Below, piece after piece: positions 25,121-51,975 of a stretch of 64,000 nt of DNA. The DNA lies in NCBI GenBank assembly GCA_034422315.1, contig DAOUJT010000176.1:3075-67074 (forward strand). The letters are read 5' to 3'. A program made the position numbers and the translations under genes. The notes beneath the pieces were generated by a model, which saw only the letters and a program-made list of their open reading frames with translations, was not told the DNA's origin and did not search any database. The stretch is from Chloroflexota bacterium (GTDB lineage Bacteria; Chloroflexota; UBA11872). Each line of letters opens with the position of its first letter. Positions within the stretch are counted from its first letter, which is position 1.

Positions 25121-27496
25121 ATGAACCTCGGAGCGTTCATCGACACGTACAAGGACGCCATCGCCCAGCGGGTGGTGGAGTCCTACCCGCCTCTGTACCG
25201 GCCGTCCGAGATCGGCCACGACCTCCCCCGCCTGCTCCGCTCGCCCCTGGGGGCGCAGGTGGACGCCATCCGCGGCGCGGCCCTCTCGCTGCGGGCGCAC
25301 CGCGGCACCACCATCGTCGGCGAGATGGGGACCGGCAAGTCCTTCATCGCCGCCGCAGCCGCCCACGCGGCGGACTTCCACCGGGTGTTGGTCCTGTGCC
25401 CGCCGCACCTGACCCGCAAGTGGAAGCGCGAGGTGGAGGCGACGGTGCCCGGCGCCCAGACCGCCATCGTCGCCTCCATCACCGACCTGGAACGCCTGCG
25501 CCGCTGGAGCGGCGCCGGTCCCTGCTTCGCCGTGATGTCCCGCGAGCGTGCCAAGCTCTCCTACCGCTGGCAGCCCGCCGTCGTCGAGCGCTGGGCCGCC
25601 GCCAACGGCCGGCTGGTGCGGGACGAGGAAACCGGGGCGCCGTTCCGCGTCCCCTGTTGCCCGTCCTGCGCCAGCCAGATCGTGGACAAGGATGGCGTGC
25701 CGCTGACGGCGCGGGCGCTGGCTCGCCGCAAGCACCGCTGCCAGCACTGCGACGCGCCCCTCTGGCAGGCCGACGCCGCCGGCCCCAAGCGCTACCCGCT
25801 CGCCGACTACGTGAAGCACCGGATGAAGGGCTACTTCGACCTGCTCATCGGCGACGAGGTGCATGAGTACAAGGGCCGCGGCTCCGCGCAGGGCATCGCC
25901 GCCGGCATCCTCGCCGACGCCTGCGGCACCTCCCTCAGCCTGTCCGGCACCCTGATGGGCGGCTACGCCTCCACGCTCTTCCATCTGCTCTATCGGTTCA
26001 GCCCGGAGATCAGGTCGGAGTTTGGGCGCTCGGAGGAGTCGCGCTGGATCGAACGCTACGGCTTCGTCGAGCACACCGTCGGCCGGCCCGATGACACCGC
26101 GCTGGAGGACGGGCGCTCAAGCCGCCGCCGGCGTTACCGCAAGGTGATCCGGGAGCGACCGGGGCTGGCGCCTGCGGCGCTCTTCCATCTCATCGGCCAC
26201 AGCGTGTTCCTCCGACTCGCCGACGTAGCCTCCGGGCTGCCGCCCTACGACGAGCAGGTGCGGCTGGCCTCGATGGACCGCGACCCCGACGCCACGGGCT
26301 TTTCCCAGCGGACGGCGTACGTCCACGTCTTCGAGGAGCTGCGCGCCGCCCTCGCCGACGCGCTCTCGACGGGTTCCAAGCGCCTGCTGGCCACCTACTT
26401 GCAGACGCTGCTGGCCTATCCCGACGGCTGTACGCGCGGCGAGACGGTGTTCGATCCCAGCACCGGCGACATCCTCGTGCAGGTCCCGCCACTGGCGGAG
26501 GACCGCCTCTACCCCAAGGAGCAGGCCCTGATGGACCTGGTGGCCGGTGAGCGGATGGCGGGCCGCCGGGTGCTGGTCTACGCCACGCACACCGGGACGC
26601 GGGACATCACCGAACGGATGGACGACATTCTGACCCGGCACGGGTTCCGGGTCGCGGTGATGAAGGCCGCCGCCGTGCCCCCGGACCGCCGCGAGGCGTG
26701 GGTGGCGCGGAAGGTCAACGAGGGTGTTGACGTGCTGATCTGCCACCCCCGGCTGGTGCAGACCGGCCTCGATCTGGTGGACTTCCCCACCATCTGCTGG
26801 TACGAGACCGACTACTCGGTCTACACCATGCGTCAGGCCTCGCGCCGCTCCTGGCGCATCGGCCAGACGCGCCCCGTCAAGGTCGTCTTCATGGCCTACC
26901 GGAACACCCTCCAGGCCGACGCGCTGAAGCTGGTGGCCAAGAAGCTGCAAAGCTCCCTGGCCGTCGAGGGGGAGTTGCCCGAGGACGGCCTGGCCGCCTA
27001 CGGCGACGACGGCGACGACCTGATGATGGCGCTGGCTCGTCAGATCGTGAATGGGCAGCAGGAGGCCGACGCCGAAACGGTGGAGGCGGTGTTTGCGCAC
27101 GCGCGGGACGCCGCCGCCAGCGCCGAGGAGTTGCTGGTGGACGATGGCTGGCAGGCGGTCGAGGTCGAGCCGGAGGCCGTCTCGGTCAACGGCAACGGAG
27201 CGACCGGCAACGGCCATCACGAAGCCATCGGCCTCGGACCGAGCGTCGAGCTGGTCCCGCACACCGGCCACGCCAACGGGAACGGCCACGCGCCTGTCCC
27301 GGTCAACGGCAACGGGGCCGACGGCAACGAGGACGAGGCCGACGAGGGGCAGCCGTCGCTGTTCTCCTGGGCGGAGTTCATGGCTGAGCCGCCGGCGAAA
27401 CCCACGGGCCGCCGCCGCAAGGCTCAGGCCCCAGCGCGGTCCCTGTTCGAGTGGGCGTTGGAACAGGAGCGGGCGCCGGTCGGCGCGGGACGCTAG
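25121..27496 (+). CDS. SNF2/DEAD-like superfamily-2 helicase with inserted Cys4 zinc ribbon
   Basis: ATG at 25121 with GGAAGGAG upstream; the track ORF 24077..27496 is over-extended. 'GEMGTGKS', 'LLIGDEVHEY', 'CCPSC...CQHC', motif VI 'QASRRSWRIGQ'. The C-terminal tail is low-complexity NG-rich. Confidence 0.8.
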   Translation: MNLGAFIDTYKDAIAQRVVESYPPLYRPSEIGHDLPRLLRSPLGAQVDAIRGAALSLRAHRGTTIVGEMGTGKSFIAAAAAHAADFHRVLVLCPPHLTRKWKREVEATVPGAQTAIVASITDLERLRRWSGAGPCFAVMSRERAKLSYRWQPAVVERWAAANGRLVRDEETGAPFRVPCCPSCASQIVDKDGVPLTARALARRKHRCQHCDAPLWQADAAGPKRYPLADYVKHRMKGYFDLLIGDEVHEYKGRGSAQGIAAGILADACGTSLSLSGTLMGGYASTLFHLLYRFSPEIRSEFGRSEESRWIERYGFVEHTVGRPDDTALEDGRSSRRRRYRKVIRERPGLAPAALFHLIGHSVFLRLADVASGLPPYDEQVRLASMDRDPDATGFSQRTAYVHVFEELRAALADALSTGSKRLLATYLQTLLAYPDGCTRGETVFDPSTGDILVQVPPLAEDRLYPKEQALMDLVAGERMAGRRVLVYATHTGTRDITERMDDILTRHGFRVAVMKAAAVPPDRREAWVARKVNEGVDVLICHPRLVQTGLDLVDFPTICWYETDYSVYTMRQASRRSWRIGQTRPVKVVFMAYRNTLQADALKLVAKKLQSSLAVEGELPEDGLAAYGDDGDDLMMALARQIVNGQQEADAETVEAVFAHARDAAASAEELLVDDGWQAVEVEPEAVSVNGNGATGNGHHEAIGLGPSVELVPHTGHANGNGHAPVPVNGNGADGNEDEADEGQPSLFSWAEFMAEPPAKPTGRRRKAQAPARSLFEWALEQERAPVGAGR

Positions 27497-27507
27497 ATCG
27501 AAAACTC

Positions 27508-27540
27508 GGGAGAGGACACCTAATCCAGGTGTCCTCTCCC
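27508..27540 (+). terminator. 14-bp perfect hairpin after the helicase gene
   Basis: GGGAGAGGACACCT-aatcc-AGGTGTCCTCTCCC, 12 nt after the stop. A T6 run follows about 20 nt later. Confidence 0.6.
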
Positions 27541-27693
27541 GCACGCCCATGTATGCGGCTTTTTTGCGTTTCAGGCAATACGGCTCCCGTGCGGCCATGC
27601 TTGGGTCATGTGTGCGGGGGATTTTCGTTGCCGCAAGACTCCGCGAAAGGGTAAAACGATATGTGTAGGGGAACGCACTGAAAGGGACCAGCG

Positions 27694-27984
27694 ATGACGA
27701 CCGCAGATACCCCGGCGCGACAGCGCAGGCCCCGCGAAGAGGCGGCAAGCCTCGGCAGAGAGATATACGAGCGAGACATCCTGCCGCAGGTCGAAGCCGG
27801 CCATCATGGTGACTACGTCGCCATCGATGTTGAGACCGGGGATTGGGCAATAGCCGACAGTGAGGGTGGCGTGGTGGATCGTCTGAGAGCGCAGCGCCCC
27901 AGTGCCGTCGATGTCTTGGTCGAGCGAGTCGGATACCGGGCGATTCGCAGCTTCGGGGCCGGGTCCCTGCGGAGGAGGGAATGA
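27694..27984 (+). CDS. Small hypothetical protein paired with a retropepsin-like protease
   Basis: 96 aa. It overlaps the next gene by 4 nt (ATGA). Confidence 0.5.
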   Translation: MTTADTPARQRRPREEAASLGREIYERDILPQVEAGHHGDYVAIDVETGDWAIADSEGGVVDRLRAQRPSAVDVLVERVGYRAIRSFGAGSLRRRE

Positions 27985-28352
27985 TCGAAGGGACCGTGAA
28001 TGCTGCCTATGAAGCGGTGGTGACCCTTCCCTTGCAGGGCCCAGATGGAATGACGCGGGACATCCAGGCCGTTATCGACACTGGCTACACCGGCACCTTG
28101 ACGTTGCCGACCGCCGTGGTTGCTGACTTGGGGTTGTCGTTTTCGCACATGGGCTGGGCGTTTCTGGCGAACGACGACGTTGTGAGCTTCGATGTCCACG
28201 AAGTGATCGTGCTCTGGGACGGCCAGCCGAGACATATCAAGGCCGACGCGACCGGCAGCACCCCACTGGTGGGGATGTCCCTGCTCGACGGGCATGACGT
28301 GAGCATCCGGGTGCGTAACGGCGGGCGTGTCCTGATACAGGCTGCGGCATAG
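27981..28352 (+). CDS. Retropepsin-like (clan AA) aspartic protease
   Basis: Catalytic 'VIDTGYTGTLTLP' (DTG), 123 aa, single-lobe size. Confidence 0.7.
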   Translation: MIEGTVNAAYEAVVTLPLQGPDGMTRDIQAVIDTGYTGTLTLPTAVVADLGLSFSHMGWAFLANDDVVSFDVHEVIVLWDGQPRHIKADATGSTPLVGMSLLDGHDVSIRVRNGGRVLIQAAA

Positions 28353-28377
28353 CAATGCTAATCGCACGGCGGATCGG

Positions 28378-29403
28378 ATGAGCGAACGATTGGATGTCGC
28401 GTACTACTACCCTGCGCCCTATTGGGGCATGGGCGAAGGCGGCTGGGTGAAGTCGCTGCTCCTGTTCTTCGATAAAGTGTCCATCCTGCTGCCGGACTAT
28501 ATGTACGGGCGGCACCGTATCGCCGACCCCGTGTTGGCCGAGCCGCTTGAAGACCAGGGTTTGCTGGAAGTGCTCGAACCTAAGACGTGGATAGACCAAG
28601 AGATGGCGAAGAGGCTGGCAGAGGCCGTCAGTGGCCTGCTTGCCAACGGCGTATTCGACGATCTTCCCAAAGCGGACCGTTTCCACGAACTGTCACAGTC
28701 CCGCATAGGCTACAGGGCCGACGTTGAACTCGCGGGGTCGTTGGTATCGGAACTCCGGAGGAAAGGGCTTGCTAAACCTAGTGAGGATGGCGTCTCGATT
28801 CCGCTGCACCCGACTGTACGCACGACCATCCTCGTCATCCTCGCTCAGCTTGCGCGTTCAGCAGGCAACAGGCAAAACATGTCCGTCCACCCGGCAACTC
28901 ATGACAGGCGTGCCTTTCAGGACCTGATCGATACGCTTTCGAGAGAGCGAATGCCATCGCGTGACCGGGTCATCGCCTTCGACCTCGAACCCGTCAGCTT
29001 CGATTTGGATTTGGTGCCTCTTGACGAACTCCTCCAGTTCCGAACCGAGAATCAGGTTGCACACCGAGCGTATATGCGCGACCTGCGAGGGTTCATGGCT
29101 GAGCTTGCCGAGATAGACCTTGCCGAAGACCGAGAGTCCCTTCTCCTACAGCGACGCCAGGAAATCTCCGACGCTGCTCACGAGCTCCAACGCTCTACTC
29201 GCAGAGCGTTCGGGAGGAACCTCCCCTCATGGTCTTGCGGGCTTGCTGGAAGCGCTTGGTCGGTCGCCATGGGCGACATATTCGGCGCAGTGCTCTCAAT
29301 ATTGGGGCTAGTCTCAGGCATAGGCAGCTCTGTAGGCGGCAACTTGAACCAAGTCACTGCCTACTCATATCTGTTTCAAGTGGAACGCAGCTTTGCGCGG
29401 TGA
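28378..29403 (+). CDS. Uncharacterised protein with a C-terminal glycine-zipper/hydrophobic tail
   Basis: 341 aa. N-terminus 'VAYYYPAPYWGMGEGGWVKSLLLFFDKVSILLPD' (I vaguely associate this with a DUF family but cannot confirm). C-terminus 'GLAGSAWSVAMGDIFGAVLSILGLVSGIGSSVGG'. It starts 25 nt after the protease stop. Confidence 0.55.
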   Translation: MSERLDVAYYYPAPYWGMGEGGWVKSLLLFFDKVSILLPDYMYGRHRIADPVLAEPLEDQGLLEVLEPKTWIDQEMAKRLAEAVSGLLANGVFDDLPKADRFHELSQSRIGYRADVELAGSLVSELRRKGLAKPSEDGVSIPLHPTVRTTILVILAQLARSAGNRQNMSVHPATHDRRAFQDLIDTLSRERMPSRDRVIAFDLEPVSFDLDLVPLDELLQFRTENQVAHRAYMRDLRGFMAELAEIDLAEDRESLLLQRRQEISDAAHELQRSTRRAFGRNLPSWSCGLAGSAWSVAMGDIFGAVLSILGLVSGIGSSVGGNLNQVTAYSYLFQVERSFAR

Positions 29404-29585
29404 ATGCACGCAGTTCACGTCTGCTTAAGTAGGCGTTCATTTGCGGTTACGCCTTCGGCTTGCGTCGAAACAGTCGGTAGGGGCAGCGAGTCGGTATCAT
29501 TAATGCCCCCCGGCGCAGAGGTCAAGGCTCCCTAAACACCAGTAGGGGCACACCCAACTTCAACGAAGCAGCATGGATTGGGCGC

Positions 29586-30953
29586 TTGGCTGCCGCCTTG
29601 GAACAAGTGGCGGTAGAGGCGGAACCGTCTTACTCCCCGCTTCCACCTATGAAGCTCGGAATCAGGCCAATCGGCGAGTATCGGTCTGCCATTAATCGTG
29701 GATACCGCGACCTCGTAGCTCGGGCAAAATACGATCCAGCGGCCGCCAAACAGTTTGAGGAGTCGCACCTGTGGATCAGAGCGTATCCCGCCGAGGCGAT
29801 TGCCATCCTTCGGGAGCATCCCCTCATGAAGCCAGGGCTGGAAGGCGCAGGTGAGAACGAAGGGATCCGACTTAGAATCCTTAACAGAATGCATCGCCCA
29901 GATCTGAAGTGGCTTGTGTCCTGTCTTGCAAAACTTACGGTCATAGAAGGAGGCGAAGAGGCTGCTCGACGTTTGCACCGCTACCTGACCGCTGGTGCGA
30001 ATGGGACCATCCCTGCCTGCGAGATTACAGTCATTCACGGATTGGTGGTGAAGACGCGTTTCAACCTAGACGCGGGAGCGTACATAGTCCCCTACGAGGA
30101 CGCTAGAGCGGAGTTCGGTCTGCCCGACGAACCTGAGCCTTTCCCGAAGACGAGTCTCCCAGATGCGGCTGTGCTCGTTCGCACTCTTGAATACGGGCCT
30201 GGAGTCGGGCAGCCCGACGCCCTTGCCCACCCGCATGATTTGCGGGTGACCTACCGATTTCCAGCCAATTATCAGGTCGATCTTCAGGGTTGGTGGGATG
30301 ACAGCAAGCTGCTCATCGACCTGCTCTCAATCGCCAAGCGGGTTCCGCTATTTTCGCGCACGCGCTATGTCCGCCTAGCCAGATGGATCGAGGAGATGGA
30401 CCCCAACTTGGCTTTCGGCACTCAAGAGTCTGAAGGATATGTCTCCGACATGTGGCCGCAAGGCCGAGACATCTCCAAGGACGACGTAGACGCCTTCATA
30501 GAGCTCGCCCGAGGCTGGCGTACGTATCCAGATAAATCGGACGCGCTGAACCTTGCGATTCGTCGGCTGGCTGGTTCGTTCTCTCGCCCGGGCGGACGAT
30601 TCGGACAAGAAGACCGCATTTTAGACGTTGCGATTGCGCTGGAGGTGCTATACGGAGGCAAGACCGGCCTCAAACTTGCCCAGCGCGCCGCAGCGCTGCT
30701 TGGGACAAACGCCAAGGATCAGAAGCGGGCATACGACCAAGCAAAGGGCTTCTATGACGTGCGGTCAGGGATCGTACACTGGAAGAGTTCACCTCCCCCA
30801 GACGTTCTCGACCAGAAGCTTGAGATTGGACACGACATGGCCTGCCACACTCTCACTAGTTTGCTCAACCGCAACACGCGACTACTGTGGGCCGACGTGA
30901 TGAAAGGCTTGCTTTCTGAGACTCAAGCGTATATCGCGGCGTCGAGGCGCTAG
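29586..30953 (+). CDS. HEPN-domain protein (Rx4H), ApeA-like architecture
   Basis: C-terminal 'EDRILDVAIALEVLYG...KGFYDVRSGIVHW' carries the R-x4-H motif, with about 330 aa of unknown N-terminal domain. The start is uncertain (TTG 29586 or ATG 29648). Confidence 0.6.
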   Translation: MAAALEQVAVEAEPSYSPLPPMKLGIRPIGEYRSAINRGYRDLVARAKYDPAAAKQFEESHLWIRAYPAEAIAILREHPLMKPGLEGAGENEGIRLRILNRMHRPDLKWLVSCLAKLTVIEGGEEAARRLHRYLTAGANGTIPACEITVIHGLVVKTRFNLDAGAYIVPYEDARAEFGLPDEPEPFPKTSLPDAAVLVRTLEYGPGVGQPDALAHPHDLRVTYRFPANYQVDLQGWWDDSKLLIDLLSIAKRVPLFSRTRYVRLARWIEEMDPNLAFGTQESEGYVSDMWPQGRDISKDDVDAFIELARGWRTYPDKSDALNLAIRRLAGSFSRPGGRFGQEDRILDVAIALEVLYGGKTGLKLAQRAAALLGTNAKDQKRAYDQAKGFYDVRSGIVHWKSSPPPDVLDQKLEIGHDMACHTLTSLLNRNTRLLWADVMKGLLSETQAYIAASRR

Positions 30954-31446
30954 GACCAAGTTATGCTTGGCGTAACGGTCTGTCATTTCTAAAAAGGGAC
31001 GGCCTCGACAGCCCGCCAACCTCCCGATGCTACCTGACGCCATTCCGCTAAATGTTTTGGTGGTGGCACATTCCGTTGCACCGGGCAGGTTAGATCGATA
31101 CCTCTCAGCAAAAAGTTCGCAATTCGGTACGCCTTGGCCCCACCAGACCTGATAGAATCAGAAACTTCCACCCTAAGGTTCGCGCTAGGTCTATAGCTGA
31201 AAGAACCGAGGCCGACACCCGAAGGCTGAAGAGCCACGCCCGCCGGAGGTGCACACTGGCGTACAATGTCCCGTCCGTCAAGGATATACGGTCACGACCG
31301 ACTTCGCATCCCGCGATTACGCGCCGGGATAGATCGAATGGCTCGGCGCGGGATCGTCCACGTTCCCAGCAGCACAGACTGATGGACGAGACCAGAAAAA
31401 CAGGCACGAAAGACAAGAACGTCGTTGCCAACTGAGGTAATTCTTC

Positions 31447-32706
31447 ATGCAAATTCTCCAGAAACCGCCGGTGAGTCCCGATAACGCCAAGGATGTATGG
31501 ATTCTGGGAGCCGGATTCTCGAAGCATATTTGGAACCACATGCCCCTGATGTCAGAATTGGCAGAGAGCGTAAACGATATCATCGCCGGCCGATTCACTA
31601 ACGCCCTTGTGCTGAACAATGTCGAGCTCGCACTTTCAGAACTCCGGAGCGACGCTCCATGGAAATCTGCCATCGACAAACACCAGGATATGGTGCTTTA
31701 CGAGCAGATATTGGAAAGGCTACAAAACGCATTGCAGATTCCCTATGGCACATTTGATTCTGATAAGGACAACGTCGCCCTAGGAAAACGCCTGGTGAAC
31801 ACCTGGCATATCAATGGGAATCACGTAATAACCATCAATTACGATCTATTGGTTGAAGGCTTGTTAGATTCCGTGCGCTGCGCACACTTCCGCGAGGAAA
31901 GAAAAGAGGACGTCTACTATCTCCTCAACAGAAACATCTACCCGATACCGATCCCCCATGTGGGGACGCGAAACAGCAGGTCACAGCGAGGCAATGAACC
32001 CATAAGCACGTTTTCCTACTACAAATTGCATGGTTCTTTGAACTACTACACACCCAGAATTCCCTTCCAAAATACAGCGATGTATCACAGGAATCACAAT
32101 GAGGTGGAGGGCGCGGCAGAAGGCCTGCAAACGTTCATCGTTCCGCCGACGTACGACAAGCAGACGTTTATTGAGCATCCTGTGCTTCACGCCATATGGG
32201 CCAAGGCGGCCAATCAACTGGCAAATACCAATCTGGGGAGAATCATCTTCGTCGGCTATTCCATGCCCCAAACAGACCTCACCATGATGAGTATGCTTCG
32301 CTCCACCATAAGATCAAGTCACCACGAGGGCAGTGGGTTGCCAGACATCATTATTGCTAACCCTGATCCTGACGCAGCGAGTAGATATAAGCAACTACTC
32401 GGCTTGCCAAACCCTATAGGGAAAGCAAGCGACGTGAGCGCCGTCTTGGAGCAATATGCGCCGAGAGACTTCGTGCGAACCCATGTATGGGGCAATGAGC
32501 ATTTGGAGGATAGGCAGGCGAAGCATCAGATGTATTTAGAACATGGCGAGGAATTGACTGAGGGCTACTTGCATCGAGCCCGACAGTTTAGTGAGGAACT
32601 GGGGCAAAAGGGCCGCCAGGGATCGGGATGGTTCTTGTCAGTAGACGAATTCCGGGAATGGTGGGTAACTACGCATCAAGATATTCCTATCGACGAATGG
32701 TTGTAA
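31447..32706 (+). CDS. Stand-alone SIR2-like (SIR2_2-type) protein
   Basis: 'VWILGAGFS', 'VITINYDLLVE', 'YYKLHGSLNY', 'IIFVGYSMPQTD'. The ~130-aa C-terminal region is unrecognised. The gene is lower in GC than its surroundings. Confidence 0.7.
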   Translation: MQILQKPPVSPDNAKDVWILGAGFSKHIWNHMPLMSELAESVNDIIAGRFTNALVLNNVELALSELRSDAPWKSAIDKHQDMVLYEQILERLQNALQIPYGTFDSDKDNVALGKRLVNTWHINGNHVITINYDLLVEGLLDSVRCAHFREERKEDVYYLLNRNIYPIPIPHVGTRNSRSQRGNEPISTFSYYKLHGSLNYYTPRIPFQNTAMYHRNHNEVEGAAEGLQTFIVPPTYDKQTFIEHPVLHAIWAKAANQLANTNLGRIIFVGYSMPQTDLTMMSMLRSTIRSSHHEGSGLPDIIIANPDPDAASRYKQLLGLPNPIGKASDVSAVLEQYAPRDFVRTHVWGNEHLEDRQAKHQMYLEHGEELTEGYLHRARQFSEELGQKGRQGSGWFLSVDEFREWWVTTHQDIPIDEWL

Positions 32707-32732
32707 TGTCCATCTTGTATCACCCCGTATTG

Positions 32733-32768
32733 CGGAGGTCGTGGATTCGAATCCTATTCGCTCCGCCA
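32733..32768 (+). other. Degenerate tRNA 3'-end fragment (T-arm + acceptor + CCA); putative integration scar
   Basis: 'cggaggtcGTGGATTCGAATCCTATtcgctccgCCA' has a T-loop TTCGAAT and a 3' CCA, but T-stem mismatches and no 5' half within 100 nt upstream (the SIR2 coding sequence lies there). Confidence 0.55.
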
Positions 32769-33005
32769 ATCTCAACAGCGCTATCGTGGGCTGCGCGCTG
32801 AGCCGTAGTCCTTTGTCCTTCCAGCACCCTATGGCGTAAGGATCGGTTCCGAGGCGGCGGTTCATCTCCGCTCAGGGCAGACCGGGCGCCTCCGTTAAGC
32901 GCACGATCCGCTGTGGGAAATTTTGGGAAGGCGTACGTTCTTCTCGTGATGATGCGTCCGCTGTCGAGGCTTAGACACGCCCACGTCCGGAAGGCATCAG
33001 CGGCG

Positions 33006-35786
33006 TCAGGACGTATCGACCGACACCTGTCCTTGCAGCCCGAGATCGGTGAGCGCTTGCCGCAACTCCAACTGAAAGCCTTGGGCCAAGCCCGCATCGA
33101 CACTCACCGAGAACTCGACGCCCACGCTCAGGTCGTCCCCGGAACGCAGCTTCGGCAGGATTCGCGTGCCAAGCCGGTTCCACACCTCCGGCGGGACGGT
33201 TCCCCTGAGCCTCAGCGTCGCCTTCTGACCTGTCTCTATGGGAAGCACGACTTGGGTTTCGCCAGAATCCGGCACGTCAACCGGAGGGGTATCAGTGCTC
33301 GGGCTTGTTTGGTCTTCCGGCTGCACCGGCTTCGTGTCATCGGCTGTGGCGCAGAGTCGCTCTGCCTTGGCTTTGGTCAGCAGATAGACCCCGGACTCGA
33401 AGGCCACCTCGTCCTGACCTACCGGCTCTTTGAACCACACTCGTTCGTACTGACCGTTGCCCTTCTCTCCAGATGCCAACCCGAAGTCTCCGGCGGTTAC
33501 GAATTCGACGACTTTCCGCTGGAGGACCGCATCTGGGTCCATTAGTCGAGTCAACGATCCGTCCAAGAAGCTCTGACGTAGGCTGTTCAGCGGCCAAGCG
33601 CCCGTGTCCGCGAACGCAGGCGGCCAATGCCGGTCGATGTATCCCACGCCAACGGACTCGTTGAGCAGCGCACCCGATTTCAACGCGGCGATCACCCGAC
33701 CGCATAACGTCTCGTTGCCGCTCGAATGGCCTGCGCCGAGGTCGATCACCTTCAAGCCCTCCAGCGCTTGCCTGTCTCCCAACGCCGCAAAGCGGTACCC
33801 GGCCCACACCTCGTCCCTCGCCGCCTCCTCCGCATCCCTGACGCTGGTCTGCACCTCGGCTCGGTCAGCCCGGTCGAACTCAGCCCCCAGGATGCCCTGC
33901 GACACCTCCTGGGCCACCCGACGCCACGCGAGCCACAGCTCCACGCTCTCTCTCAGCTCGCGACCAGGCTTCCTGACGCACCAGACCAATGCTCCGGGAT
34001 AGAGCCTTGGGGAATCTCCTCGCTCCCTGGTCCATCGAACCACGCGTTCCGCAAGCTGACCGCTCCCCCGCCACTCCTCCGCGGGATCGAGGACGACCAT
34101 CGTCAACCGTGGCGAGTCCTGCACCGCATCGCCGTTCTCCGGGAAGTAAACCACCGGAACCGGTGCGCCCCGGGCGAACTCCTCCTGCACAACCCTGCGA
34201 ACTGCGGGCCTGATCTCTGTGTCCTCGTCAAGGGAGGCGCGCCGATCGCTGACGACCTTTCGCAGCGTCGCCTGATGGTGGATGCGGTAGCCGTCCGTGC
34301 CGACCCTCCGCAGGAAGAATGCGGACTGCTCCAAAGCCGTGGCCGCGTTGTCGATAGTGGTCGTCTCCACCTCCGGCTCGCCGAGGGCGAATCGCAACTC
34401 CGGCAGGTGGGCCACCTTGTCCACCTGTCCGCCGGACGACTCGAACAGGATGGCCGCGCCGACCCTGCGATGGATGCCGCGCAGCGCCTTCTTGGTGTCC
34501 GCGTCCAGGGTCCTGGCGTGGGACGTATCCCCAGCGACGTCCGCTTCGATGGCGGCGTCGAGCCGCTGCTCCCCCAACTGGCCGAGGACCACGGCCCGAA
34601 ACTCCGGCACGTGCAACGGGGCGGAGCCCAGGGTGATCAGCGGTTCATTCCGCGCTAGCCGGAACTGCTCGCGCGACGCCCAGGAAATCCATTGGGCGAG
34701 CATCGCTAGCGCGCCGCGCGTCTGCTGGAATTGCGCCAGCGCCCGCCACTTCCGCTGGAAAACGGAAAGCGTCGCCGGGTGGAACGGATAGCACGCCTCG
34801 AACCGGCGCCGCAGGAAGTCATGCGCCTTAGAGCCGGTGACGGCACTGTCCACGGCCGTCCACTCCGGGGGAAGACGCGCGCTTCGCTCGAAGCACCAGT
34901 CCGCGTGTATTCCTGCGATCCGTTGACGCACGCGTTTGCCGCCGAGGTCCTCAAACAGCCTTCGGCGCACCACCTCGCTGATTTCGGACTCGTCGTTCGC
35001 AATCAGGTCGCGGGCGACGCGGCGTACGATCTTGGTGATGCGGTCCTGCCACTCCTGGTCCCACGCGGTCATCTCGATCTGGCTGCGGGGCAGGCTGATC
35101 ACCGCCGCCGCATGGATCGCGCCCGTGACGGCAACGGTCAGATTCTGGAGGAAGGCGTGGAAGGGATCGGCCATGCCTCGGTGTCGGTTGACGAAGTTCA
35201 ACACCTCGTCGAACAGCAGCAACACCGGCGCGTTCGCCGCGGCGAACACCCTGGCCAGCGCCTCGGTTCCGGGCGGCGTCGTCTCGGCGGCGCTGCCTAG
35301 GGCGGAAACGCCGGCGTCTCCGGCCAGCTGCCGGGCCAGATCGATCCAGGGCGTCTCCCGTCCCGGTGCCGGGTCCCAGGCGTTGCCGACGAAGACGCCC
35401 ACGCGGGCGGCGGGAGCTTCAGGAACATTCACATCTTTCAGCAGGTCGCCCACGCCCGGAAGTGCGTCGGCATCCCGGCCGGCGTTGGCGAGGTGGTAGA
35501 GGGACGCGAGCGTGTGCGTCTTGCCGCCGCCGAACTGCGTGATCAGCGTCAGGACCGGCGCGGTGTTCTCCGTTCGGCCGGACAACCTCCGCAGGACCAT
35601 GCCGGAGTGCTCCGTCAGCGCGCGGGTGAAGCAGGTGCGCGAGAAGAACTGTGCCGGATCGCTGTAGTCCGGGGGCGCCGTTCCCGCCACGACCTGCTCC
35701 AGGGCAATAGCGAACTCGTCTGGGCTGAAGGACCGGCCCTCCCGGACCTCCTCGCGTAGCGTTACGACCTTGTACCAGGGTTGCAT
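33006..35786 (-). CDS. DUF499-like P-loop ATPase (ATPase component of a helicase-methylase-ATPase system)
   Basis: N-terminus 'MQPWYKVVTLREEV...FAIALEQVV', Walker A 'QFGGGKTHTL', Walker B 'VLLLFDEVLNF', and 'CYPFHPATLSVFQRKW'. 926 aa. Confidence 0.7.
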   Translation of the reverse strand: MQPWYKVVTLREEVREGRSFSPDEFAIALEQVVAGTAPPDYSDPAQFFSRTCFTRALTEHSGMVLRRLSGRTENTAPVLTLITQFGGGKTHTLASLYHLANAGRDADALPGVGDLLKDVNVPEAPAARVGVFVGNAWDPAPGRETPWIDLARQLAGDAGVSALGSAAETTPPGTEALARVFAAANAPVLLLFDEVLNFVNRHRGMADPFHAFLQNLTVAVTGAIHAAAVISLPRSQIEMTAWDQEWQDRITKIVRRVARDLIANDESEISEVVRRRLFEDLGGKRVRQRIAGIHADWCFERSARLPPEWTAVDSAVTGSKAHDFLRRRFEACYPFHPATLSVFQRKWRALAQFQQTRGALAMLAQWISWASREQFRLARNEPLITLGSAPLHVPEFRAVVLGQLGEQRLDAAIEADVAGDTSHARTLDADTKKALRGIHRRVGAAILFESSGGQVDKVAHLPELRFALGEPEVETTTIDNAATALEQSAFFLRRVGTDGYRIHHQATLRKVVSDRRASLDEDTEIRPAVRRVVQEEFARGAPVPVVYFPENGDAVQDSPRLTMVVLDPAEEWRGSGQLAERVVRWTRERGDSPRLYPGALVWCVRKPGRELRESVELWLAWRRVAQEVSQGILGAEFDRADRAEVQTSVRDAEEAARDEVWAGYRFAALGDRQALEGLKVIDLGAGHSSGNETLCGRVIAALKSGALLNESVGVGYIDRHWPPAFADTGAWPLNSLRQSFLDGSLTRLMDPDAVLQRKVVEFVTAGDFGLASGEKGNGQYERVWFKEPVGQDEVAFESGVYLLTKAKAERLCATADDTKPVQPEDQTSPSTDTPPVDVPDSGETQVVLPIETGQKATLRLRGTVPPEVWNRLGTRILPKLRSGDDLSVGVEFSVSVDAGLAQGFQLELRQALTDLGLQGQVSVDTS

Positions 35787-35811
35787 CGGGAAGACTCCAA
35801 ACTGCTGATGC

Positions 35812-36168
35812 TCAGAATTTCGGTGGATGCGATATCCGGATTCGCCCGCCGCGTACGGTTAGGACAGCCCGCTCCTCCAGCGCCTTACCGTGATCCTCGA
35901 TTACCGCTCGAACGGTTTCGATTCGCTGTGACACGCGAACATCGGGCAGGCGAATCAGTCCTGCATGAGAAACCCGCTGCAGGTAGATGAGTTCGCCGAA
36001 GTCCTTGTCCAGCGTGACGAGAACCCGGTTCTCCGCTCCCGCTCGTTCCAGCAAAGCCCTGTCGCCTGGATCCGGGCCAAGTGTCTGTGCTTCAACAACG
36101 TCGTGTCCGTTGTCACGCAACCACTCCGCCAACCGTCGCCCAGCGCATCGGTCGGTGAGGAATCTCAC
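35812..36168 (-). CDS. DUF5615/Mut7-C-like PIN-fold putative toxin
   Basis: 'MRFLTDRCAGRRLAEWLRDNGHDVV...LVTLDKDFGELIY'. GTG start overlaps the upstream stop (GTGA). Confidence 0.6.
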   Translation of the reverse strand: MRFLTDRCAGRRLAEWLRDNGHDVVEAQTLGPDPGDRALLERAGAENRVLVTLDKDFGELIYLQRVSHAGLIRLPDVRVSQRIETVRAVIEDHGKALEERAVLTVRGGRIRISHPPKF

Positions 36169-36416
36169 CGTGCCGCGACGGAAACCGGCGCCAGCGTGTC
36201 GCCCGATATCACGGTGTGGGCGTAGGCGATACAGGCGCGGATGTCCTCCGGTTCCAGTTCGGGGTAGTCATCCAGGAGTTCATCCTGGGTGGCGCCCTGG
36301 CTCAGCAGGCTCAACACAAGCTCGACCGAAATCCGCATGTCTCGGATGATCGGCTTTCCGCCAAAGACATCAGGCCGCGCGGTGATGCGGTTGAGGAGTT
36401 TATGGTTCGTCGTCAT
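36165..36416 (-). CDS. DUF433-like putative antitoxin
   Basis: 'ITARPDVFGGKPIIRDMRISVELVLSLLSQGATQDELLDDYPELEPEDIRACIAYA'. Internal ATG of track ORF 36165..36476. Confidence 0.65.
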   Translation of the reverse strand: MTTNHKLLNRITARPDVFGGKPIIRDMRISVELVLSLLSQGATQDELLDDYPELEPEDIRACIAYAHTVISGDTLAPVSVAAR

Positions 36417-36447
36417 CACTTCCCTCCGTAGTTCGTGGATTCGTCGA

Positions 36448-39432
36448 TTACCTCGGCGCCGCCAATAGCATGGCATCCAGCAGCCGCTTTTCCTCGCTTC
36501 CCCGTGGGTAGAGTGCGGTCAGGGCGTTGGCGAGGCGCAAGAAGTCTGGGCCGCGCTCCTGCTCGGCGCGTAGCAGGTTGCGCAGGGCCTGGCTGCGACC
36601 CGACGCCTGGAGCAGCATGGCGGCGTGCACCCGGTCCAGCGTGGTCGCCGAGAGCCTAAGCTCTGCATTGCCGCTGGTCAGCATCGATGACCTGCTCCGC
36701 CTCCGCGCTCGTCCCCGGACGGCGGGCGGCTCATCGGGAAAGAGGCTCAACTGCGGAGATACGTTCGCTGCCGCCTCCATCTCGTCGGCTACGGCGGCGG
36801 CGCCCGACTCGCCGAACAGTTGCTTCCCGCGCTCAGTGACAGGGAGCATGCACACTACACCCCTCTTCGTCTCGATGATGCGCGATTCCCAGTCGTCGAG
36901 GTGGATGCCCAGCGGCTGGGCGAACCGCCGCGCCACGTCAAAGGGCAGGCTGTAGCCGGACGACTTCCTGCGCGGCGCTTCGTCCTCTTCGTCGTTGGGG
37001 GTGGCACAGTCTTCTGAGAACACGCCTTCCGACGTGCTCTGCAAAGTCCAGAGGAACAGCGCGGTGAGGCGGGCGTCTTCCTCCAGCGCCCCTGCCGCGC
37101 CGTTGCGGGCCTGCGCCTCCGCCGTACCCAGCACCTGCTCCAACGCCTCGCGGCCTACCACCTCCCACACTCTCTCCAGGTACTCCGGCAGGCTCACCTC
37201 GCGGCCCTCAGCCGTCTCCACGGCGCGATAGCGACTGTAGATCTCCAGTGCCGGGCCGACGCAGGCGAACACCAGGTCCGCGCCCCGGATGCCTTCGCCT
37301 TGGAGCCGCTGCATCCAGTCTGCGACGCGGCCTGGTAATTCGTACAGCACGTCGGCCCAATCGCCGACCGGCGCATCCTCTGGTCGCGGGCGGCAGATGA
37401 GGTGGACACTAGTGGCAAGGGCAGCGGAGGCTTGAGAGCGCAGGCGGCCTGGTCTTTCGGTGGCAACAGGCCAAGAGCCGGTAATGGTCCAGCCGCCTCG
37501 GATCAAGCCAGAAAGCAAAGCCTCCCAACCCTCGGTGGTCTTGTGAGCGAAGACGACCGAGCCCACGCCGTCCTGGCTGAGGATACGGCGACCTTCGGCG
37601 AAGGCCTTCGCCATCGTTTCCTCAAACCAAGCTTGGCTCTTGGGCATATTGTTGGAATGTTTGGTTTCATCTTGCACGATCTCGGGAATCTTGGGGGAGA
37701 GTGAACCGCTCGGATCAAATGGGTCTCTCAGCAACGAGTGATCAGGCAAGGCGCGCTTAAGCCACACAAGAAAGAAGTCCGAGAGTTCTGCGTACGGAAC
37801 CGCATCGTAATATGGTGGGTCGGTGAACCAAACGCTAGCGCTCTGGTCAGGTAAGGGATGATCTACTGCATCTGCTTGCTGTACTTGACCGTGTGTGCCA
37901 GAGAACTTCCTAACGAATCTGATCCCGTAGCCAATTGCACCTTCAAGAGATCCTGTTGAATTACCCGTCGGACACGTCTCACAGAAATCCCAAACCATTG
38001 GAAGGGCTTGTCGTCCGAAGGTCGCGGCAGATGATTCTCTCGGTCCAGCCCAACGAGATAAGGCGGAGTTGAAATCCGCCATTTTGGATAGCGTTAGGCA
38101 AAGTCCACCAACAATCTCACTGTCTACTCGAGTGTTCCGAATTAACGTGCTCAGCGCCATCAATGCCACTTTCTGCCGCGCGGTGAACAGATCGCCCCAA
38201 TGGAGCATCCCGTACCGTTGGACGCTGAACGCGCGGCCGGCCCCTGAACCTCCTCCTGCGGGAGTCGGCTCATCCGGCACGGGACATAACCCCGGTCTTC
38301 CGCCACGCTCCCACTCGTCCAACATCGCCGTGACGCGCTCTTGCGCCCCACGGATGACCACATAGTCCGCATCGACTGGCAGGCGGTAGTGGCGCCCCCT
38401 TTCGCTAGGCTTGAGGGTCACGACCGCCGTCATGCGCGCTCCGCCTGCGCGGTTGCCATGTTCGTCGAACACCACGTCCGCCCCGCCTCTCTGCGCGGCA
38501 AGCTGGGAGCGCACCCGGTCCGGCGGCAGGACGGCCCCGCAGCAAACGCATGTAGCCCTGGCCCTTGTCACGGTCCCAGTGGCGACCTCGCTATCGGACT
38601 CCGGCTCAATAATCTTGAACTCCACGCGAGGAGTGCTGTCATCGCGCACCACGTCGGAGCGCAGCGCCCACTTGCGGTTGGGCTTCCGGCACAGCCACAT
38701 GGAACGCATCAGGGGTATCTCCGCGCCGCAGTCGGGAGCCTCGCAGCGCACTGTCCGCGCCCATAGATAGGCGATCGGTGTTGCGCCGTCCGGGTCTTTG
38801 GGATATAGGTCGGCCAGTTCGTTCTCTGCCTTGGCCTTGACCTCCGCGCCCACCTTGCGCAGATCGTCAGCCAGACCCGGCCCGCGCCTGGGAATGTCCT
38901 CCAGCATCACCTTGAGGATCAGGCAGGCCACGGGGTTGAGGTCGCTGGCGAAGGCCTCGCAGCCCAACCGCAGGGCCTCCAAGGGAATCGAGCCGCCGCC
39001 CGCGAAGGGATCCACTACTGGGAGCATCTCCTCCGGATGGGCGGCCTTCACGAGGTCGCGCCCGATCTCCAGGTACTCCGCCTTGGCCGCGTTGTCCCAG
39101 TTGGCGAAGTCGGCGATGAACCGGAGCAATACGCGCCGCAGCCCTTCGTCAGCCTTCACATGCTCGTCCCACGCGCCGGGACGGGTCCGCATCGCCAACA
39201 GTATTTCCCGCGCACGCGCCTTGAACGCCGGCGGGCAGTGCTCGTCGCACGGATCGGGTAGCAACAGCGCCATGAGCACGGCCCGCGACGACGCCAGCGG
39301 CCGCCGCGCCCACCACAGATGCAACGTCGAAGGATGCCCATGCCGAATCGACTTTTCCCGCGCCGCGTGCCGCGAGACCTCCGCAATAGGAAAGTCGACT
39401 TCCGCTAGGCGCTTGCAAGACACAGGGATCAT
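36448..39432 (-). CDS. DUF1156-type DNA methyltransferase
   Basis: 'AAREKSIRHGHPSTLHLWWARRPLASSRAVL' is the DUF1156 signature as I recall it. Motif I 'VVDPFAGGGSIPLEALRLG', motif IV 'WFTDPPYYD'. The start is set at ATG 39432 (track ORF extended to 39582). Confidence 0.75.
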   Translation of the reverse strand: MIPVSCKRLAEVDFPIAEVSRHAAREKSIRHGHPSTLHLWWARRPLASSRAVLMALLLPDPCDEHCPPAFKARAREILLAMRTRPGAWDEHVKADEGLRRVLLRFIADFANWDNAAKAEYLEIGRDLVKAAHPEEMLPVVDPFAGGGSIPLEALRLGCEAFASDLNPVACLILKVMLEDIPRRGPGLADDLRKVGAEVKAKAENELADLYPKDPDGATPIAYLWARTVRCEAPDCGAEIPLMRSMWLCRKPNRKWALRSDVVRDDSTPRVEFKIIEPESDSEVATGTVTRARATCVCCGAVLPPDRVRSQLAAQRGGADVVFDEHGNRAGGARMTAVVTLKPSERGRHYRLPVDADYVVIRGAQERVTAMLDEWERGGRPGLCPVPDEPTPAGGGSGAGRAFSVQRYGMLHWGDLFTARQKVALMALSTLIRNTRVDSEIVGGLCLTLSKMADFNSALSRWAGPRESSAATFGRQALPMVWDFCETCPTGNSTGSLEGAIGYGIRFVRKFSGTHGQVQQADAVDHPLPDQSASVWFTDPPYYDAVPYAELSDFFLVWLKRALPDHSLLRDPFDPSGSLSPKIPEIVQDETKHSNNMPKSQAWFEETMAKAFAEGRRILSQDGVGSVVFAHKTTEGWEALLSGLIRGGWTITGSWPVATERPGRLRSQASAALATSVHLICRPRPEDAPVGDWADVLYELPGRVADWMQRLQGEGIRGADLVFACVGPALEIYSRYRAVETAEGREVSLPEYLERVWEVVGREALEQVLGTAEAQARNGAAGALEEDARLTALFLWTLQSTSEGVFSEDCATPNDEEDEAPRRKSSGYSLPFDVARRFAQPLGIHLDDWESRIIETKRGVVCMLPVTERGKQLFGESGAAAVADEMEAAANVSPQLSLFPDEPPAVRGRARRRSRSSMLTSGNAELRLSATTLDRVHAAMLLQASGRSQALRNLLRAEQERGPDFLRLANALTALYPRGSEEKRLLDAMLLAAPR

Positions 39433-39484
39433 CTGGCCGTATCCAGCGTTATTACCCAAATACTCACCGCTGTTCTCAGCATCT

Positions 39485-41224
39485 TCATGCTCTATTTTGC
39501 CTACGCATGTTCTCCACCGCCTTCTCGAAATTCGGTGGCGACGGTTTTCGCGACCACTCGTCCCAGAATTCAATAGTCGCACTTAGCGGCTTCTCACATG
39601 GTTTGCGAATGCGAATTCGGCTCGGAAGGAGTACGGCATCACCAACCACAAGCGCCTCACCGATGTCGAGAATCGGAAGTGTATCCATCAGTCCTTCGAG
39701 GCTCTCCGGCATCAAGCGCCGCACTGTTGCCTGGTCATCGCTATTGGTGAGTCGCAAAGACATGACGTTATGACACTGGCTCAGTATCGTCGCACTTACA
39801 TCCGATGGTCGTTGGCTAACTACAAACAGTGCTACTCCGTATTTTCTCCCCTCTTTGGCAATCTTCTCAAAATTCTCGATTGCGCGTTGTTCGACCGGGT
39901 TTGCCCCTTCCTTGTGGGATAGATAAACGTGGGCCTCATCACATACAAGAGCCATTGGTGTCCGGCTCTCACGATCCGTCCAGAATTGCACTTGGTAAAT
40001 GATTCGCGCCACAAGTCCGACTATTGCAGGAAGGATCTCAGCCGGAACTTCAGAGAAGTCAATGACCTTGATCTGTGATCCATCGGTGGAGTAGTCCATA
40101 AGCTGACTAACGATAGCTGCCATCGCACTGTAATTGTGTGAATTGCACGGAGCCTGAAATAAGAAACCATACCTCTTGTCCGTTAGTCTACTGTTGAGTC
40201 GAACAAGCAATCGACTGAATTGGCCATGGAATGGTCCATTCCTCTCTCCCCCTCTTGCTCCTGGTACCCGCTCCTCGTTTAGGCGCCTCAACTCTTTCAT
40301 TACTTCATTGATGGAAAAAGGGACTGGACTGTCCAAGGTGAAAGCGCTCAAGACTTCCATCTTATCTAGTTCTTCTAACTGCCTTCTCTTTTCGGCTATC
40401 ACCGCGTCCTGGAACGCCATCACTTGGTTGTGTGCGCTGAACTCACTTCGGTCTATGAACATTGCCTGGAGCTCCTCGGCATTAAGCAACCAGTAGGGCA
40501 GGAATAAAAGTGAATTGTTAGCCTGTCCAAGCTCCTCCGGGCCTGGCACTCGAAGATGACGGGCGTATGATAGCTCTCCATATTCACCGTGAAGGTCGAA
40601 CACGATCATGTTCGTCGACGGAAGGCGCGCGGATTGCTCCAAAATTGCAGCCACGCACCACGACTTTCCAGACCCAGTACTCCCAAGTAACGAAGCATGG
40701 CGTTGAAAGAACTTGTTTCCATCCAAGTAGGCGGTCGCATTTTCATCGATGGTGTACCGACCGACTTCGAGCGACTCGGATCCCTTTCCTTCGTCAGAAA
40801 GCAATGCCATAAACGTCTGCAACGGAGCGTCCCTGAGAACAAGACAGTTTCCATCGATCTCAGGCACCTGGATCAGCGAACGCGAAAACTCCGGCGTGTT
40901 TTCAAGTGAGAGGCCTACGGTTCCTACCAAAGTGACTCGAACAGTATTCAAGACCGCCTCGCGCTGGACCATGACGCTTGCTGCCTCAAGATCTTCATCG
41001 AGCTCCGAGTCCGTGAGATCTTCAAGCACCGGCGTCTTCACCACCCGATCAATAACACCTATCAGCCATTCCTCAATTGGGCCAGGCAATTCAATTGCCA
41101 CTAGCTGACCAACCCGGGCCTTCCGAAGATCTTCATCGCTGTTAACCTGAACGTCGACTCTTCGAGTGTCGACAGCACGGATGTTCCCGAGCGTGTGCGA
41201 TGTATCGAAAGAAAAAACAGCCAT
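39485..41224 (-). CDS. herA: HerA-like (DUF87/FtsK-HerA superfamily) ATPase of a SIR2-HerA pair
   Basis: Walker A 'LLGSTGSGKSW', Walker B 'MALVCDEAHVY', 'VALFVVSQRPSDV'. AGGAGG sits upstream and the ATG is 1 nt after the SIR2 stop. Confidence 0.75.
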   Translation of the reverse strand: MAVFSFDTSHTLGNIRAVDTRRVDVQVNSDEDLRKARVGQLVAIELPGPIEEWLIGVIDRVVKTPVLEDLTDSELDEDLEAASVMVQREAVLNTVRVTLVGTVGLSLENTPEFSRSLIQVPEIDGNCLVLRDAPLQTFMALLSDEGKGSESLEVGRYTIDENATAYLDGNKFFQRHASLLGSTGSGKSWCVAAILEQSARLPSTNMIVFDLHGEYGELSYARHLRVPGPEELGQANNSLLFLPYWLLNAEELQAMFIDRSEFSAHNQVMAFQDAVIAEKRRQLEELDKMEVLSAFTLDSPVPFSINEVMKELRRLNEERVPGARGGERNGPFHGQFSRLLVRLNSRLTDKRYGFLFQAPCNSHNYSAMAAIVSQLMDYSTDGSQIKVIDFSEVPAEILPAIVGLVARIIYQVQFWTDRESRTPMALVCDEAHVYLSHKEGANPVEQRAIENFEKIAKEGRKYGVALFVVSQRPSDVSATILSQCHNVMSLRLTNSDDQATVRRLMPESLEGLMDTLPILDIGEALVVGDAVLLPSRIRIRKPCEKPLSATIEFWDEWSRKPSPPNFEKAVENMRRQNRA

Positions 41225-41225
41225 G

Positions 41226-42344: not shown

Positions 42345-42564
42345 TTAGGGTTAGATATCGTGCTTCGGGCTCTCGGAATACCGTTGACTGAGCCAAGGCG
42401 TTGACATCCGGCGAAGCGAGTTGGACCTTGTGCACCTCATGCCTCAGGCGATGCGCGGGATCTTCTGCTGGCTCCTCTAACCGTCGATCGGCGGCCCAGT
42501 TTGGTGACGCTGTAGAGACAGGAGCAGTCGCGACGGTCTCCGGCTATCGGGCACTCGTCGGAGA

Positions 42565-51816: not shown

Positions 51817-51975
51817 AGGGGCGACGCATGGAGCCTGTTTCATAAGTCAATCAAACCTGCGAATTCGTGGTTCGACAGGCTCACCGTGAGCGGTCCTGAA
51901 CCTGTAACGCTGGTCCTGAGTTTGTCGAAGGACGAGATACGGCGACTTTTGAAACACCCTCCATGCGTCGCCCCT
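51817..51975. repeat. 159-bp MITE-like element with 17-bp perfect terminal inverted repeats
   Basis: AGGGGCGACGCATGGAG (51817-51833) pairs with CTCCATGCGTCGCCCCT (51959-51975). There is also an internal inverted repeat TTCGACAGGCTCA...TGAGTTTGTCGAA. The right arm overlaps the stop codon of the 1807-aa gene. Confidence 0.75.

Follow-up and report, generated by a model that had tools for sequence, protein, structure and literature searches.

The 64,000-nucleotide (nt) stretch of a Chloroflexota contig analysed here (the window) carries, at positions 27694 to 32706 of its plus strand, a block of five co-oriented genes. Very probably, this block is not one system and represents a mosaic of cargo cassettes, each mobile in its own right, in the variable region that follows the final backbone gene, a helicase gene, of a conjugative element. 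Its units would be a gene pair, g1-g2 (unit A), and three single genes, g3 (unit B), g4 (unit C) and g5 (unit D). The first gene, g1 (27694-27984), encodes a 96-amino-acid (aa) protein of a family without assignment, the partner of the protein encoded by g2 (27981-28352), a predicted retropepsin-like aspartic protease of clan AA, 123 aa long and with a single domain. The third, g3 (28378-29403), encodes a 341-aa DUF6236-related protein with a hydrophobic, Gly/Ala-rich C-terminal segment. The product of g4 (29586-30953) is 455 aa long when counted from a TTG codon and carries the HEPN motif R393-x4-H398, and g5 (31447-32706) encodes a 419-aa protein of the SIR2 family. An initial annotation of this DNA had described five plus-strand open reading frames (ORFs) here, all of which are present at the coordinates given, and had proposed that they form a single arrangement.

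All five genes have homologues elsewhere. The ratio of non-synonymous to synonymous substitution rates (dN/dS) is 0.08-0.20 in comparison with a 95%-identical sister locus and 0.14-0.62 in comparison with distant loci. Because of these homologues and of dN/dS values between 0.08 and 0.62, g1-g5 are real genes under purifying selection and not chance ORFs of a high-GC genome. Most of the window has a G+C content of ~72%, which falls to 50-66% between ~27.7 and 51 kb. Within the block, G+C drops stepwise from 0.65 in g1 to 0.62 in g2, 0.58 in g3, 0.58 in g4 and 0.50 in g5, compared with 0.71 in the neighbouring helicase gene. The 4-nt ATGA overlap of g1 and g2 and the 25-nt gap between g2 and g3, both reported previously, were confirmed, and the remaining gaps measure 182 nt (g3-g4) and 493 nt (g4-g5).

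The distribution of the genes was followed through 120 loci, all of which were searched with all five proteins. These comprise 15 genome loci with g4 homologues (three of them short), 80 metagenome loci with g3 homologues, contigs encoding close homologues of g3 or g5, and plasmid records; sampling is skewed to marine and sponge metagenome-assembled genomes (MAGs) and Nostocales plasmids. Throughout this set, g1 and g2 are always together. The combinations g3/g4, g3/g5, g4/g5 and g1-g2 with g5 co-occur only in two assemblies of the window's own genome (L001 and L002). The proposal of one arrangement thus fails, since homologues of g4 and g5 do not co-localise with the rest in this set, and those of g3 largely do not. 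It is extremely improbable that all five genes constitute one undescribed defence system that would unite protease, RNase and NADase activities with a membrane protein. Shared orientation and close packing within a defence island, together with the lack of PADLOC matches for g1-g4, would suit such a system. However, outside their own genome g3, g4 and g5 occur together at none of the 120 loci, a sister element (L122) carries g1-g3 without g4 and g5, and the block is interrupted by the two longer gaps, the steps in G+C and sharp unit boundaries.

The sister element is a 44-kb contig from another sample. It matches the window over the helicase gene to the left of the block (26005-27474, 95% DNA identity), over g1-g3 (27363-29490, 95% DNA identity, with proteins 97-98% identical) and over the 3' end of hmaC to the right (32958-33980, 91% DNA identity). 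Alignment of the window with L122 by blastn delimits a plus-strand segment at 29490-32768, comprising g4, g5 and a terminal tRNA-like fragment, as absent from L122. The contig lacks the sequence from 29490 to ~32762, and with it g4, g5 and most or all of the fragment. In place of this segment, L122 has ~410 nt that consist of a second copy of the helicase 3' end and a hairpin. The g1-g2-g3 triad is bracketed there by a duplicated sequence (L122 1267-1455 and 4331-4516), namely the terminal ~190 nt of the helicase gene together with a hairpin, and this suggests cassette exchange by recombination at helicase 3'-end sequence.

The right end of the block had been described as a tRNA-fragment scar, and a degenerate string resembling a tRNA 3' end (GGTCGTGGATTCGAATCC...CCA, covering T-arm, acceptor and CCA) does lie at 32734-32768 of the plus strand. 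It was read from the sequence, is called by neither ARAGORN nor Rfam, and is unique in the window, where no second copy that could complete an attachment-site pair was found. Since weak similarity to L122 resumes only at 32762-32800 (39 nt, 79%, E 7.7e-4), within the last bases of the string, the scar appears to belong to the g4-g5 segment. It might be supposed that g4 and g5 arrived together on a tRNA-integrating element as a two-gene HEPN and SIR2 unit, given that g4, g5 and the fragment are one contiguous indel relative to L122. This is very improbable, as a g5 homologue is found in 0/15 g4 loci and a g4 homologue in 0/4 g5 loci, the two genes stand 493 nt apart, and their G+C contents differ (0.58 vs 0.50).

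The co-occurrence pattern, the L122 indel, the sharp similarity boundaries and the stepwise G+C show that the block consists of at least three separately acquired units. Several observations weigh against a mosaic of fully independent cassettes. The genes g4 and g5 differ from L122 as one indel and may have been acquired jointly in a single event. A genuine multi-gene system may be contained in the block, because L122 and four lineages have the triad with its spacing preserved. The triad loci are themselves not fully independent, as two of them (L021 and L110) retain remnants of the window's helicase. At one locus (L003), a g1-g2 pair adjoins a g4 homologue on the opposite strand, without g3. 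Finally, the census of g5 draws on four homologue loci, and the HEPN fold of g4 is read from just a motif, a helical model and weak Foldseek matches.

Gene g3 was previously considered an orphan. This view did not survive a phmmer search, which returned 762 clusters at 50% identity (E<1e-3); the homologues number at least 740, and the family is related to the Pfam family DUF6236. The DUF6236 model (PF19749) is matched by 9/26 diverse members of the g3 family, with a best E of 3.8e-10, and one close homologue has a precomputed match to it. The family also falls in the same length class as DUF6236 proteins (~330-350 aa). The window's g3 differs in that it has no PF19749 match at E<=1, and it matches no Pfam or NCBIfam model at all. 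Profile searches of the PDB with g3 gave noise only, and an AlphaFold2 (AF2) model is poor, with a predicted local distance difference test score (pLDDT) of 48.5 (the alignment contained 22 sequences, all >=63% identical to the query). No full-text paper that mentions DUF6236 was found in the literature searched. The C-terminus has a Gly/Ala-rich hydrophobic stretch (approximately residues 285-320; Kyte-Doolittle maximum 1.96 at residue 301), and an AYSYLF tail is conserved in the family. A cytoplasmic domain followed by such a C-terminus would suggest a membrane-directed effector.

The gene is usually a solitary defence-island gene, kept behind g1-g2 in one clade. All of the metagenome g3 loci (80/80) are without g1, g2, g4 and g5, and no neighbour is common to these homologues of 41-64% identity. 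DNA similarity to solo g3 loci begins exactly at the g3 start (28377/8) and stops at its stop codon. The plasmid search gave one g3 match, which is solitary and flanked by recombinase genes. Elsewhere, g3 lies in the neighbourhood of bacteriophage exclusion (BREX) genes, Thoeris TIR genes, type I restriction-modification genes, Mrr, and AAA_15 plus DUF4276 genes. A role in defence is attributed to g3 through guilt by association with these neighbours. In a subclade of six loci (L056, L064, L067, L073, L074 and L077), Mu-transposase/rve and AAA_22 genes of TniA/TniB-like type are found ~2.4 kb upstream of the g3 homologue, and these copies appear to be cargo of Tn7/Tn5053-like transposons. At another locus (L023/L024, 4548-6370), an AAA_15/AAA_21 ATPase gene and a DUF4276 gene precede a g3 homologue of 66% identity by ~1.6 kb, and a second AAA_15 gene is located further on. 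The AAA_15 and DUF4276 pair presumably corresponds to the phage anti-restriction-induced system (PARIS).

In one clade, g1, g2 and g3 form a triad. The probable co-transcription of these genes, proposed earlier from their close packing, is supported to the extent that a transcription-sized unit recurs with the same spacing in L021 and L022, with nearly the same spacing in L110/L111, and also in L122. Identical gene offsets (287 and 397 nt) are shared by the window, L021, L022 and L122, and those of L110/L111 are almost the same. The surroundings of the triad vary and include BREX genes, RES and transposase genes, and Thoeris-type TIR genes. DNA similarity between the window and other triad loci ends at 29394-29424, just past the g3 stop. 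At L109, L112, L113-115 and L023-25, g3 genes that are no less similar occur without the pair. Degenerate remnants of the window's helicase are retained in L021 and L110; therefore, the triad loci partly share descent. The island around the L110/L111 triad is dense and contains two ThsB-type TIR genes, TIR_2, LD_cluster2, Nmad2, MazG and an MmeI-type methyltransferase gene, and g2 appears frameshifted in L110 and intact in L111.

It is possible, if somewhat doubtful, that g1-g2-g3 is a genuine three-gene system, in which a g1-restrained g2 protease would process or control g3 and the C-terminus of g3 would damage the membrane. Such a system would parallel protease-activated pore formers. The identical offsets would fit such a system, as would a gene order kept although g1 and g2 have diverged to 55-62% identity, purifying selection on all three genes, and the hydrophobic C-terminal segment of g3. 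On the other hand, most g3 loci are without g1-g2 (the 80 metagenome loci as well as L109, L112, L113-115, L023-25 and L116), and g1-g2 is without g3 on all Nostocales plasmids and in L003. Furthermore, the identities of triad g3 copies (81, 79 and 75%) interleave with those of solo copies (80 and 77%), and the linkage could be explained by common descent, given the helicase remnants common to triad loci. In our reading, one clade has kept a g1-g2 module in front of a g3 cassette, and functional coupling of the two is possible, if doubtful.

The g1-g2 pair is an old, strictly paired and translationally coupled bicistron. A g1 homologue lies directly upstream of every full-length g2 homologue seen. 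In all nine plasmid records with a full-length g2 homologue, all of them from Nostocales, g1 (30-36% identical) is immediately upstream. The overlap of the two genes is 4 nt in the window, L021, L022, L122 and five gene-annotated Nostocales plasmid loci examined. The pair ranges from Nostocales plasmids to sponge and marine MAGs, and g1 has a dN/dS of 0.08 in comparison with L122. On the Nostocales plasmids, the pair is found between pglZ and pglX of BREX-1, between a helicase/RelE/Uma2 cluster and a DUF1156 gene, and beside ParDE, methyltransferase and nuclease genes; g3 is absent from all of these loci. On plasmid pNSMS101 of Nostoc sp. MS1 (L106, 250823-251460), the pair lies in opposite orientation between the BREX-1 genes pglZ and pglX, and pglX is additionally split by an IS630 transposase gene.

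The g2 protein was compared with TIGR03698, the 'clan AA aspartic protease' (clan_AA_DTGF) model, which it matches with E 1.5e-14 and 54.2 bits, just under the cut-off of 57.35. The residues D33-T34-G35 are invariant in seven homologues, including proteins of Nostoc, and the Prokaryotic Genome Annotation Pipeline (PGAP) labels the Nostoc homologues 'clan AA aspartic protease'. Retropepsin-like proteases of clan AA need dimerisation to form the active site. No signal peptide, transmembrane segment or hydrophobic segment pointing to export was found in g2, which is taken to be cytoplasmic. In its length of ~120 aa, its DTG motif and its lack of a signal peptide or transmembrane segment, g2 resembles the COG5550/TIGR03698 peptidases. 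It differs from these in its obligatory upstream partner and its defence-island setting, neither of which was found described in the literature searched. Prokaryotic single-domain clan AA peptidases are called 'little known' in the literature (PMC2642776). A table entry in another paper records that, in Sulfolobales, small proteins with a retropepsin domain are encoded near type III CRISPR loci (PMC3973734). Beyond this entry, retropepsin-like genes in defence islands were not found in the literature searched, and nothing was found on COG5550 in a toxin-antitoxin (TA) context.

The partner g1 has no match in Pfam, NCBIfam, PADLOC or PHROGs, and its Nostoc homologues are also without a Pfam match. 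A profile search of the PDB returned a designed coiled coil only, and no helix-turn-helix (HTH), ribbon-helix-helix (RHH) or other DNA-binding domain was detected. Because of the obligatory, coupled small partner and the TA-rich, defence-embedded settings, the most likely role for g1-g2 would be that of a TA-like or protease-switch module, in which g1 acts as the cognate inhibitor or the substrate of g2. The pair resembles type II TA systems in that two small overlapping genes are strictly paired, patchily distributed on plasmids and integrative and conjugative elements (ICEs), and embedded in defence loci beside RelE, ParDE and PIN genes. It differs from them in that its catalytic partner is an aspartic protease and not a nuclease, kinase or metalloprotease, and toxicity and neutralisation are only predicted. 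We consider it possible, on balance doubtful, that g1-g2 represents an undescribed two-gene class, a protease-based TA or abortive-infection switch that in one clade controls a membrane-directed g3 as a three-gene system.

An alternative is that g1-g2 is not TA-like and acts as a protease and repressor switch that controls transcription of adjacent defence genes. Its analogues would be CapH/CapP and ImmR/ImmA, protease-repressor switches of defence operons. The position of g1-g2 beside or inside defence operons (with pglZ on one side and pglX on the other, adjacent to DUF1156, or preceding g3), the basic N-terminus of g1 (ARQRRPREE) and the conservation between loci of ~100-190 nt upstream of g1 could all be accommodated by a switch of this kind. 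Nevertheless, this model is weakened by the lack of a detectable DNA-binding domain in g1. The orientation of the pair relative to neighbouring defence genes is inconsistent, and g1-g2 pairs are also found away from recognisable defence genes, so that this kind of transcriptional control is unlikely.

Gene g4 was proposed to encode an ApeA-like protein with a C-terminal HEPN R-x4-H motif. The motif was verified: 'RSGIVH' corresponds to R393 and H398, both of which are invariant in 22 homologues. The description of g4 as a single-gene HEPN protein behind an N-terminal domain without assigned family also holds. The AF2 model (pLDDT 81.6, predicted template modelling score 0.81) has a large alpha/beta N-terminal domain and an all-helical region at residues 298-454. 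In Foldseek searches, this model gave weak local matches to the HEPN proteins 2hsb (probability 0.69, E 0.38) and 8xeh (E 2.6), and nothing at E<1e-3 against the PDB or the viral BFVD; a PDB profile search found nothing. The protein has no Pfam, PADLOC or NCBIfam match at E<=1, and a 36%-identical relative (L016) has no Pfam match at E<=0.1 and no PADLOC match at E<=0.001. ApeA models are included in Pfam (HEPN_Apea and ApeA_NTD1) and in PADLOC-DB v2. The ApeA-like architecture therefore stands, as g4 is a single gene and solitary cassette whose product has its R-x4-H motif at the C-terminus, behind a large N-terminal region that is not HEPN, whereas a place within ApeA does not, because no ApeA model is matched and no structural neighbour is found at E<1e-3. 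Judged from its sequence, g4 is a HEPN family separate from ApeA. By analogy with HEPN effectors, g4 is probably an infection-triggered RNase, whose large N-terminal domain would keep the R-x4-H site off until a trigger is received.

The start of g4 is altered in the window. The GTG or ATG start codon of the family is changed to GGG, together with a 1-nt deletion (29541-29586). The conserved N-terminal peptide PNFNEAAWIGRL is encoded in frame at ~29541-29585 without a start codon, and translation must begin at the TTG (29586) or at a later ATG. Gene callers differ in the length they assign (375, 434 or 455 aa). With a dN/dS of 0.22-0.30, the body of the gene is without relaxed selection. The 15 g4 loci have no neighbour in common. 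Genes next to g4 homologues include those for a histidine kinase, a major facilitator superfamily (MFS) transporter, a glyoxalase, HsdR and a Mutator transposase, and many of the homologues are surrounded by housekeeping genes. No g4 match was found in the plasmid collection.

The SIR2 Rossmann core of g5 has the NAD-binding motif GAGFS, the catalytic motif NYD and, with the catalytic His, KLHGS, all of them conserved across 26 homologues. No variation is seen at G21, G23-F24-S25, N131-Y132-D133 or K193-L194-H195-G196-S197, and very little at A22. The protein matches Pfam SIR2_2 with E 1.9e-4 and 22.0 bits, below the cut-off of 24.5, and the PADLOC SIR2 model PDLC04087 with E 2.2e-8. Its nearest solved structure is the Sir2 of Sir2-HerA (8j4u, E 1.8e-7). 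Together with its close homologues (415-437 aa), g5 has a C-terminal extension of ~70 aa that is confined to this close clade. Homologues are solitary at the four loci examined (L018-L020 and L117) and lie beside transposase, integrase or recombinase genes, and the plasmid search gave one g5 match, solitary and flanked by recombinase genes.

No SLOG or TIR domain was found in g5 or in adjacent ORFs, and there is no HerA gene beside g5 or in the loci of its homologues. The initial annotation was correct in reporting a short SIR2 protein without these partners. Its statement that no HerA is nearby holds for the immediate neighbours and is wrong at the scale of the island, since a SIR2-HerA pair is located at 39485-42344. 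The best PADLOC model and the PDB relatives of g5 are Sir2 proteins of the Sir2-HerA (Nezha) type, which are similar in length. However, this similarity is weak (E 2e-8 and 1.8e-7) in comparison with the 4e-144 of the window's true Sir2-HerA Sir2, which is 24% identical to g5 over 230 aa, and g5 is set apart by the missing adjacent HerA gene and by its clade-specific extension. Unlike ThsA of Thoeris, g5 has neither a SLOG fusion nor an adjacent ThsB TIR gene. DSR1 and DSR2 are proteins of ~1000 aa with an N-terminal SIR2 domain and a large C-terminal sensor; at 419 aa, g5 is far shorter. By analogy with defence SIR2 proteins (for example PMC10973363 and PMC11514289), g5 is probably an NAD+-depleting abortive-infection effector.

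Some or all of the block genes could also be non-defence genes, that is, selfish or accessory cargo, and g4 could be decaying. The lack of PADLOC matches for g1-g4, the lost start codon of g4 and the many g4 homologues among housekeeping genes point in this direction. In contrast, the catalytic motifs are conserved, purifying selection extends to g4, and the defence-island and mobile-element settings of g3 and g1-g2 are strong, which makes a non-defence nature quite unlikely. None of g1-g4 matches a named system and g5 belongs to none either, and each piece of the mosaic is of a known kind, namely ICE cargo, a solitary HEPN gene, a solitary SIR2 gene and a TA-like bicistron. A phage origin of the block was rejected, as none of g1-g5 has a PHROGs match and searches of virus collections with g2 and g3 gave no relative on a viral contig or in a phage. 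In a scan of 27300-33200 for promoters and terminators, counts were not above those of shuffled controls.

The conjugative module described upstream of the block is borne out by genes for a TrwB-type coupling protein, a TraG/VirB4-like ATPase and TrbL/VirB6. The region upstream also encodes a primase, a Rad52-like protein, a DUF6094 methyltransferase and a helicase with the Pfam domains ResIII and Helicase_C (25127-27496, plus strand), which is 96% identical to the L122 helicase. The backbone of the conjugative element ends with this helicase gene, which forms the left border of the cargo hot spot. Between it and g1, a terminator-like scan located a 16-bp hairpin followed by a conserved motif, CATGTATGCGGCTTTTTTGCGTTTC (27507-27541). 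Hairpin and motif are kept upstream of g1 in L021 and are present also in L004 and twice in L122. The copies (window 27507-27575; L021 ~7133-7205; L004 4013-4083; L122 ~4540-4620 and near 1455) differ in stem sequence and are followed by the conserved motif CCATGTATG(C/G)GGCC-T(6-8)-GCGTTTC. The recurring hairpin could be a common terminator, or else an element that marks the junctions between cassettes and is repeated there or used in recombination. The idea that the hairpin at 27507-27541 is part of the g1-g3 module was dropped. Because L021 also keeps a helicase 3'-end remnant, common ancestry of helicase, terminator and triad is the simpler reading of its conservation there.

The block is part of the defence-island cargo region of an ICE. 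An Hma system, which the initial annotation did not mention, begins 300 nt after g5 and occupies 33006-46746 of the minus strand, with HmaC (DUF499) at 33006-35786, the HmaB methylase (DUF1156) at 36448-39582 and the SNF2 helicase HmaA at 43285-46746. Two further minus-strand modules are embedded in it, namely a DUF433/PIN-like pair (35812-36416) and the complete SIR2-HerA pair (39485-42344), composed of HerA (39485-41224) and Sir2 (41226-42344). PADLOC E-values are 4e-88 for HmaC, 1e-117 for HmaB, 3e-171 for HmaA, 3e-221 for HerA and 4e-144 for SIR2, and the Pfam families DUF499, DUF1156, DUF433, DUF87 and SIR2_2 are matched on this contig. With SIR2-HerA within Hma, one defence system is nested inside another. 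ARAGORN called an 88-nt tRNA-Ile at 52690-52777, inside a 1807-aa minus-strand ORF (51974-57397). This call is probably a false positive, since Rfam, applied with its gathering threshold, reports not a single tRNA for the whole window. The same ORF contains twelve to thirteen 72-nt tandem repeats (56174-57126) that encode 24-aa units with a leucine-rich-repeat-like periodicity, and repeats of ~300 nt occur at 962-3733 within a 1351-aa ORF (17-4072). Both ORFs look like large, repeat-containing surface proteins.

These results remove a false lead, as there is no five-gene protease, RNase and NADase system here. Four uncatalogued defence-island candidates take its place: the g1-g2 bicistron, the DUF6236-related family, a new solitary HEPN family and a short, solitary SIR2 protein. 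The window and L122 together document, as a clean natural case, how cargo turns over at a single ICE hot spot. The most interesting and distinctive lead of the block is g1-g2; if it is a protease switch or toxin, aspartic proteases would join the enzymes of prokaryotic conflict systems.

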